Shown here: piece by piece, positions 29,380 to 29,747 of the stretch
Numbering within the stretch: position 1 is the first letter of the stretch
Layout: each line of letters starts with the position of its first letter
Source: Escherichia phage Bf23
Length of the DNA stretch: 64,000 bases
Sequence record: OR083247.1
Direction: 5' to 3' (one strand)
Notes under the pieces: model-generated
Told to the model about the DNA's origin: nothing
Seen by the model: only the letters and a program-made list of their open reading frames with translations
The model's database searches: none
Made by a program: the position numbers and the translations under genes

Positions 29380-29609
29380 AATTGAAAACTCGCAGGGTTA
29401 GCGAAACCATCCTCAATTAGCATGTTCTAGAATACTAATCAAGTTATCTCCTATTGCACGCAGCTCAAGACGAGTACGAATTTTCAATTGTGGCGGCTCT
29501 CAGAAACTCTTCTATTCTAGCCTCAGAAGCTTACCCCCGAACGCCTGTCGGGAAAGTCTTTCCAAGAGCATCAAATAGCACCGTTACACTTTGAGCCATT
29601 GATATATCA

Positions 29610-29694
29610 AGGAACAGAAGGATTTGAACCTTCACGAGATAGACCATTTATCTCAACCGCTTTTAAGGTATATTTCTAGGAGTGGATGTTCCTA
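29610..29694 (-). ncRNA. tRNA-like element, unresolved
   Basis: canonical T-arm GAAGG-TTCAAAT-CCTTC and acceptor-like pairing AGGAACA/TGTTCCT, but no canonical anticodon arm found. Confidence 0.3.
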
Positions 29695-29747
29695 GTAAAC
29701 CTATTCGGCAGTCCCGTCTACCAATTCCGGCATATTCCAAGAATTTT

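Follow-up and report, generated by a model that had tools for sequence, protein, structure and literature searches.

A tRNA-Leu-like RNA and two further non-coding RNA genes in the tRNA island of Escherichia phage BF23

What occupies a stretch of a phage tRNA island in which neither a protein-coding gene nor a complete tRNA can be recognized? The question is raised by positions 29,380–29,747 of a 64,000-nucleotide stretch of Escherichia phage BF23 DNA (OR083247.1), the whole of which was analyzed and is hereafter called the window. A preliminary description of this locus, made from the sequence alone, had reported a stretch free of coding sequences (CDSs) that contained a canonical T arm, and had proposed that it held either decayed tRNAs or small stable RNAs. 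The second proposal turned out to be apt, in that three minus-strand non-coding RNA genes, all of them publicly annotated before, fill positions 29381–29741, and these are the rnaIII, rnaI, and rna1 genes of the BF23 and phage T5 GenBank records. The depositors' notes call the products of rnaI and rnaIII 'stable RNA with unknown functions' and that of rna1 'tRNA-like RNA with unknown functions' (AJ604530). The comparisons described below indicate that RNA1, which derives from a class II tRNA-Leu, is a maintained RNA that does not decode, and is neither a pseudogene nor an intron-containing tRNA.

Positions 1–9900 of AJ604530 ('Enterobacteria phage BF23 tRNA gene region'), which originates with the group that studied the tRNAs of both T5 and BF23, correspond to positions 26362–36261 of the window at 99.9% identity (an offset of 26,361), and by this alignment the window is phage BF23. 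A similarity search with positions 29380–29760 as the query matched the same record at 99.7%, and identity to its annotated genes was 100% for RNA1, 100% for RNA III, and 99% for RNA I. The three genes are also annotated in the T5 st0 genome (AY692264), in the same place and order, and those of BF23 (AJ604530 and NC_042564) and T5 are the same object, being 99.7–100% identical and lying in the same order between trn2.14 (T5p061 in T5) and tRNA-His. The records give 'unknown functions' and no structure, and the 2023 paper on the complete BF23 genome, for which tRNAs were predicted with ARAGORN only (yielding 20), does not mention these RNAs (PMC10644984). The open literature that we searched describes neither a function nor a structure for them. 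Papers from the 1980s are said to have described RNA I and RNA III of T5 as stable RNAs resolved on gels. The genes themselves are thus already known, and what is added here is a covariation-supported structure and model for RNA1, corrected bounds, a wide distribution, and its status as something other than a pseudogene.

Fold and conservation of RNA1

As the preliminary description had said, positions 29381–29741 contain no open reading frame (ORF) of at least 50 amino acids, and no standard tRNA is called there, either by ARAGORN or by Rfam at its gathering threshold. When the threshold was made permissive, the Rfam tRNA model (RF00005) aligned to RNA1 from end to end, over 29609–29739, at 25.9 bits against a gathering score of 29, with a 47-nt insertion in place of the 7-nt anticodon loop and with a long variable arm. 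This permissive scan returned only the tRNA and tRNA-Sec families, with no match to any other; as for tmRNA, ARAGORN found none in the window and Rfam only a 9-bit fragment elsewhere. A covariance model that we built from an alignment of RNA1 sequences (model R1, the E-values of which are rough) matched 29608–29741 at 158.6 bits. The element had earlier been placed at 29610–29694, bounds that both models exceed; it reaches 29741, 41 nt beyond the end of the stretch then described.

The T arm that had drawn attention to the locus is real and lies on the minus strand (Table 1). The window contains 20 occurrences of its T-loop motif, GGTTCRANNCC, each of them on the minus strand inside the tRNA island, compared with 0.65 expected by chance, and four of the 20 fall outside ordinary tRNAs, at 29620 (RNA1), 30177, 32076 (RNA2), and 36248. 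The statement that no anticodon arm folds did not survive, because a 5-bp anticodon stem (ACUGC/GCGGU, 29712–29708 with 29660–29656) encloses the 47-nt insert at 29707–29661. Within this insert, which folds into a rod, an A-rich internal loop leads to a 4-bp stem, and a second internal loop separates that stem from the 6-bp apical hairpin (29695–29676), whose 8-nt loop is ACAUCCAC at 29689–29682. The acceptor-like pairing proposed earlier had used GGAACA of this apical hairpin (29694–29689). We rejected the 85-nt unit that it would close (29610–29694): the GGAACA pairing is kept neither in phage KKP_3711 nor in the Sugarland clade, and the strand that covaries is instead 29738–29733. The predicted fold of RNA1 as a whole is more stable than that of shuffled sequences (z = −2.40).

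Acceptor, D, and T arms are all present in RNA1, together with G18G19 and the GTTCRA T loop, and the nearest comparison is with class II tRNA-Leu (RF00005). Common to the two are a D loop of the form GGAAUYGGUAGAC with G18G19, a 3-bp D stem, a long variable arm, a T loop of the form GGUUCAARUCC, and an acceptor stem of seven positions. Consistent with this likeness, the canonical tRNAs that scored best with model R1 were class II tRNA-Leu(UAG) genes, at 36.9 and 39.8 bits. Unlike a class II tRNA-Leu, RNA1 has the 47-nt insert where the 7-nt anticodon loop would be, conserves neither U33 nor an anticodon, carries U and not A at the discriminator position, encodes no CCA, and scores below the Rfam gathering threshold.

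BLAST found RNA1 in 492–501 phage records, with carriers in Tequintavirus, Epseptimavirus, an unclassified Enterobacter phage, Yersinia phage phiR2-01, Sugarlandvirus of Klebsiella, and Pectobacterium phage DU_PP_V. Model R1 gave exactly one match per phage genome, at 137–159 bits. We aligned 27 distinct RNA1 sequences and then a second set of 21 that included more divergent ones, all of them from closely related phages. Standard pairs made up 93% of the cells, and pairs in which both sides had changed numbered 11 in the first set and 14 in the second. The covariation scores, 0.219 and 0.276, compare with 0.10 and 0.12 for shuffled alignments, none of the 500 shuffles reaching the observed value, and sliding the 3′ partners out of register reduced the score to 0.02–0.09. 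Double changes were found in all helices but two, the D and T stems, in which the sequence hardly varies: the former is constant, and the latter shows only single-sided replacement of A-U by G-U. The fourth pair of the variable-arm stem, for example, is seen as AU, UA, or CG, and in the Sugarland clade the acceptor stem is wholly different in sequence and extends to 13 bp. RNAalifold recovered the same helices when it was not supplied with the structure.

Among the loops, ACAUCCAC at the apex of the rod, AAAUGGU in the variable arm, the D loop, and the T loop are all invariant. The single-stranded flanks of the insert, in contrast, vary by clade (CGAAU...UUAAAA, CUAAA...CAUAAA, or CUAAA...GAAAAC), and RNA1 therefore has no conserved U33 or anticodon. 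No CCA is encoded after the 3′ strand of the acceptor stem, and the position that follows this strand is U in the Markadamsvirinae and base-paired in the Sugarland clade, so that A73 is not found. In E. coli, an A73 discriminator is the main identity element for LeuRS. Because none of U33, anticodon, discriminator, and CCA is conserved, RNA1 would be unable to decode.

Across the loci compared, identity ranged over 76–100% for RNA1, 89–99% for RNA I, and 96–100% for RNA III. Among the ~100 relatives listed of the ~500 matching phage records, the homologous DNA is in almost all cases either unannotated or placed under a 'hypothetical protein' call, and the CDSs so called over homologues of RNA1, RNA I, and RNA III differ in frame and extent, as in three of the loci for example; these calls are probably spurious. 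Some relatives have a tRNA-Ser annotated beneath the match, but this is the adjacent tRNA-Ser(UGA) and not RNA1. Among 80 bacterial loci retrieved by a loose pattern (a non-exhaustive sample of at least 120 matches), model R1 found no RNA1, its best match being an ordinary 74-nt tRNA at 25.5 bits, and we take the bacterial matches of that pattern to be chance matches. Four metagenomic matches of a second, viral pattern were likewise set aside as unrelated sequence and not RNA1 homologues.

Table 1. Positions in the window of the three RNA genes, the parts of RNA1, and neighbouring features.
Feature	Position	Strand	Evidence
RNA III gene, 106 nt	29381–29486	minus	annotation in AJ604530 and AY692264; fold
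RNA I gene, 107 nt	29491–29597	minus	annotation in AJ604530 and AY692264; consensus fold
RNA1 gene	29598–29741	minus	annotation in AJ604530 and AY692264; Rfam tRNA model, model R1, covariation
RNA1 structured core	29608–29741	minus	models, covariation
RNA1 3′ trailer, 10 nt, reaching the first base of RNA I	29598–29607	minus	
RNA1 acceptor stem, 5′ strand; pairs with 29616–29611	29733–29738	minus	5 of 9 pairs changed on both sides
RNA1 D arm; 3-bp stem, loop GGAAUUGGUAGAC with G18G19 as in tRNA-Leu	29714–29730	minus	invariant in all homologues
RNA1 anticodon arm	29656–29712	minus	3 + 2 + 3 pairs changed on both sides in its three helices
RNA1 long variable arm; 6-bp stem, invariant AAAUGGU(C) loop; a class II tRNA feature	29636–29654	minus	alignments
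RNA1 T arm, GAAGG-UUCAAAU-CCUUC	29617–29633	minus	100% paired in 21 to 27 distinct homologues
tRNA-His(GUG), downstream neighbour	29303–29380	minus	ARAGORN, Rfam, AJ604530
ORF trn2.14, 57 amino acids, upstream neighbour; stop codon 6 nt ahead of RNA1	29748–29921	minus	ORF list, AJ604530
Promoter P13b, nearest annotated upstream promoter of the unit with RNA1, RNA I, and RNA III	30610–30684	minus	AJ604530 annotation shifted by 26,361; annotation only
112-nt spacer between tRNA-Leu1 and tRNA-Ser2	30130–30241	minus	unannotated in AJ604530
Chimeric tRNA remnant at a deletion junction	36234–36311	minus	alignment to AJ604530

RNA I, RNA III, and release from the transcript

The three genes lie on the same strand as the tRNAs, with ORF trn2.14, RNA1, RNA I, RNA III, and tRNA-His following one another in the order of transcription, so that the 200 bp earlier described as lying upstream of the T arm and lacking an ORF or tRNA are in fact downstream in the sense of transcription and contain RNA I and RNA III. 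The genes are arranged head to tail, with spacers of 0–6 nt, within the transcription unit downstream of P13b. AJ604530 annotates no promoter or terminator between them, and a consensus scan for promoters and terminators found nothing above chance near them. In Epseptimavirus, ORF trn2.14 is missing and RNA1 abuts tRNA-Ser1. All 20 tRNAs that ARAGORN called in the window are on the minus strand, between 27.3 and 34.6 kb.

RNA I begins with GGCUC and ends with GAGCC-GCCA, giving a 5-bp acceptor-like stem (29597–29593 with 29499–29495) followed by a GCCA 3′ end (29494–29491). RNAalifold yields a consensus in which this stem closes an irregular rod, with modest covariation (four pairs changed on both sides). 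The homologue in Pectobacterium phage DU_PP_V has the stem GGGCC/GGCUC, which contains two double changes, and keeps GCCA. RNA III is predicted to form a 12-bp terminal stem around three hairpins, a cloverleaf-like topology (z = −2.85), and its 3′ end is the base before the 5′ end of tRNA-His. Because it is 96–100% identical wherever it is present, no covariation could be used for RNA III. In DU_PP_V a different sequence stands at its position, with a similar long terminal stem that abuts tRNA-His, and the gene order there is RNA1, RNA I, RNA III-like RNA, tRNA-His. Two further features of RNA III were seen in passing. Near its 3′ end (29389–29405, minus strand), a weak terminator-like hairpin, UUCGC-UAACCCU-GCGAG followed by UUUU, is possible as an alternative to the 12-bp stem, and in its interior AGGAG is followed after 6 nt by a UUG-initiated mini-ORF of nine codons, located within a hairpin and showing two amino-acid changes among the few variants.

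We consider it likely that these three BF23/T5 genes are processed from an early transcript and that their products accumulate as stable small RNAs. RNA1, RNA I, and RNA III would be made within an early polycistronic transcript starting at P13b, from which the host tRNA-processing machinery would excise them. RNase P would cut on the 5′ side of RNA1, of RNA I (which has U at −1, G at +1, and the GCCA 3′ end), and of tRNA-His; each cut would also create the 3′ end of the species upstream, with the tRNA-His cut generating that of RNA III, and 3′ trimming would follow. The tRNA-like ends and compact folds would then allow the RNAs to accumulate. We are far more tentative about what RNA1 does afterwards, which may be to act in trans as a tRNA mimic that occupies or titrates a protein recognizing the tRNA body; among possible functions this is the one that we favour. 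The rod and the invariant loops would add a second specific contact, and the role would be an accessory one, dispensable in the laboratory.

A number of points weigh against this picture. The 'stable RNA' status of RNA I and RNA III rests on the depositors' notes, and RNA1 is annotated only as 'tRNA-like', which may reflect a sequence-based prediction. The predicted fold of RNA I is no better than that of shuffled sequences (z = −1.27), and at the 3′ end of this RNA the relative KKP_3711 reads GUCA and not GCCA. The Sugarland clade has neither RNA I nor RNA III, and because its RNA1 carries the 13-bp terminal stem and has no tRNA next to it, release of the RNase P type is less obvious there. 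As for a role in trans, no binding partner of RNA1 is indicated by any of our results, and those fragments of the deleted T5 segment that did not carry tRNA-Lys failed to rescue infection against the tRNA-cleaving defence PARIS (PMC11464382). Considered separately, and rejected, was an antisense target for the apical loop: its complement, GAGTGGATGTTC, occurs nowhere else in the window when up to two mismatches are allowed, and complementarities of 4–5 bases to RNA I and RNA III, picked out by eye, fall on variable positions.

The most serious competing explanation is that the RNAs are structured punctuation acting in cis only, as landmarks at which RNase P and exonucleases separate the trn2.14 mRNA and the flanking tRNAs from one another, with the excised pieces persisting on account of their folds but having no function in trans. 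The close packing of the units, which abut each other and tRNA-His, would suit such a role, as would the acceptor-like stem plus GCCA of RNA I and the dispensability of the segment in T5 (PMC11464382). The tRNA cluster of phage T4 offers a parallel, as it too includes two stable RNAs of unknown role, species 1 and 2 (rnaC and rnaD), which lie head to tail beside tRNA-Arg. In its predicted minimum-energy fold, the 139-nt rnaC combines a terminal stem and a long rod with a hairpin resembling a variable arm and a canonical GGGUUCGAAUCCC T arm, an architecture akin to that of RNA1. It differs in having no recognizable D arm in that predicted fold, with the body of RNA1 being much nearer to a real tRNA-Leu, and model R1 found no match in the T4 tRNA region and hence no detectable homology of rnaC or rnaD to RNA1. 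A cutting signal, however, needs no invariant 8-nt apical loop, no invariant variable-arm loop, and no 47-nt rod maintained by compensatory change; nor does it call for an RNA III that is nearly unchanged where its neighbours differ by 10–20%, and Sugarlandvirus keeps RNA1 without adjacent tRNAs. Loops that do not vary, a rod under structural selection, and a Sugarlandvirus lineage that has kept only RNA1 speak for a role in trans and against a mere cutting signal, and we judge the purely cis-acting explanation to be rather unlikely.

That the stretch consists of decayed tRNA pseudogenes or neutral spacer, the other proposal of the preliminary description, is very improbable. The sub-threshold Rfam score and the lack of an ARAGORN call would fit decay, and the island is a known hotspot of repeat-mediated rearrangement that contains a real remnant at 36234–36311. 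Decay would not, however, leave 93% of the cells paired, 14 pairs changed on both sides, invariant loops, and a single copy in each genome over ~490 records from several genera. For 29598–29741 it can be set aside, as the helices are kept by compensatory change across Tequintavirus, Epseptimavirus, Sugarlandvirus, and the Pectobacterium phage, and none of the 31 distinct relatives inspected has an intact ordinary tRNA at this position.

No better placed is the notion that RNA1 is an intron-containing tRNA-Leu that would become a decoding tRNA once a 40-nt insert was removed. The body of RNA1 is tRNA-Leu-like, and in the BF23 type the heptamer just ahead of the anticodon stem's 3′ strand is CUUAAAA, a perfect anticodon loop for tRNA-Leu(UAA). 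But this heptamer is confined to the BF23 type, being replaced by UCAUAAA in the T5 type and CGAAAAC in the Epseptimavirus type; U33 and the anticodon are not conserved, and there is neither CCA nor A73. The insert, moreover, falls far short of the length of a group I intron, its rod is not a bulge-helix-bulge motif, and it is itself under structural selection. Least probable of all is that small proteins are encoded here, as the annotation of several GenBank records has it, for even though many relatives have CDS calls over the homologous region, every ORF of the window there is shorter than 50 amino acids, the annotated CDSs vary in frame and extent from one relative to the next, the alignments contain one-base indels, and the substitutions are compensatory in RNA helices.

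Other tRNA-like pieces of the island

Two further stretches, at 30150–30235 and 36233–36310, had been described as orphan pieces similar to that in RNA1. Decay is an accurate description of the second, which is a chimera at a deletion junction, but the two are not alike in nature, the first being a lone T-arm-like hairpin. In the chimeric remnant the 3′ 28 nt, including CCA, derive from tRNA-Ile2, what lies 5′ of them derives from a tRNA-like unit inside 'RNAX', and the acceptor strands are mismatched. The window is without positions 9901–14158 of AJ604530 (4,258 bp), and with them tRNA-Ser3, tRNA-Arg, most of 'RNAX', and several ORFs are missing. The flanks of the deletion share 18 nt of T-arm sequence (window 36244–36261), within which the crossover lies; the deletion arose by recombination between two T-arm repeats. 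The junction at 36244–36261 is found in no record of the phage collection. The tRNA island is already known as a place where repeat-associated deletions concentrate (PMC12483538).

The spacer between tRNA-Leu1 and tRNA-Ser2 contains the isolated T-arm-like hairpin UGGG-UUCGAAU-CCCA at 30175–30189 and is otherwise devoid of anything tRNA-like. It gave no model match at E ≤ 10, and its fold is close to that of shuffled sequences (z = −0.24). It is 98–100% identical in 17 loci, including loci in which RNA1 is only 85% identical, and is thus conserved like the surrounding tRNAs. In T5 a gene for an HNH homing-type endonuclease replaces the whole spacer. The spacer may represent what is left of a tRNA, a small RNA that has escaped annotation, or a conserved site targeted by an endonuclease.

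Other RNAs of the island depart from the usual tRNA form. Three tRNAs of AJ604530 are missed both by ARAGORN and by Rfam at its gathering threshold, namely Gly(UCC) at 28600–28675, Ser(GGA) at 30039–30129, and 'Trp' at 34324–34394, all on the minus strand; in their predicted folds the 'Trp' gene has a 9-nt anticodon loop, CCUACAAAA, and the Gly gene has a bulged anticodon stem. The BF23 record lists further tRNA-like or stable RNAs: RNA2 (32062–32186), RNA3 (32980–33053), RNA IV (31732–31834), and RNA2H (30417–30588). RNA2 folds into a cloverleaf with a canonical T arm and an 'anticodon' arm of ~65 nt, a design like that of RNA1; RNA IV folds into a four-way junction (z = −3.3); and RNA3 is a degenerate tRNA ending in ACCA. 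The tRNA-Leu(UAG) of the window (30242–30318) is 77 nt long and has a 5-nt variable region and no long variable arm, which is unusual for a bacterial-type tRNA-Leu, and in T5 and other relatives the tRNA-Leu(UAG) is of class II, at 83–87 nt. According to the BF23 record, the tRNA-Leu(UAG) gene can be converted into an efficient amber suppressor.

Along the island, conservation forms a mosaic. Across Tequintavirus loci tRNA-His, RNA III, tRNA-Ser2, and tRNA-Leu1 are ~99–100% identical, and in many of the same loci tRNA-Lys (30771–30848) is 74–80% and RNA1 85–88% identical. Escape from the PARIS nuclease has been reported for tRNA-Lys (PMC11464382).

A possible role for RNA1 in the family

tRNA-shaped modules that serve processing or protein binding rather than decoding have precedents in the tRNA-like domain of tmRNA, in the Y-RNA-like bacterial RNA YrlA, and in the t-elements of plant mitochondria, although YrlA ends at the opposite, anticodon side. 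For RNA1, the phage tRNAs themselves suggest where such a role might be sought. The tRNAs of T5 neutralize PARIS (PMC11464382) and, according to a passage of PMC10644984 that cites other work, they also act against the retron Eco7/Ec78. Because T5 tRNAs counter tRNA-cleaving defences, a conserved tRNA-Leu look-alike in the same operon is a reasonable candidate for an accessory role of this kind. T5 mutants deleted for 29191–32442 are viable (PMC11464382), and given the st0 coordinates of the three genes (30287–30647) this deletion should include them.

A bolder and more doubtful proposal is that RNA1 is a family-wide functional mimic of tRNA-Leu in the Demerecviridae, serving in trans as a decoy or sponge for a host factor with affinity for the tRNA body, such as a tRNA-targeting defence nuclease or a tRNA-modifying or charging enzyme, with the rod and its invariant ACAUCCAC loop as a second specific contact; RNA I, RNA III, RNA2, RNA3, and RNA IV may act likewise. 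The pattern that we would cite for it is that RNA1 is 76–88% identical where the neighbouring tRNAs are ~100% identical, as is also the case for the PARIS-escaping tRNA-Lys. For ~twenty years these RNAs have stood in GenBank under the note 'stable RNA with unknown functions'; present-day automated annotation overlooks them. If RNA1 were indeed a decoy, the fast turnover of its sequence combined with the preservation of its fold would be the signature of an arms race.

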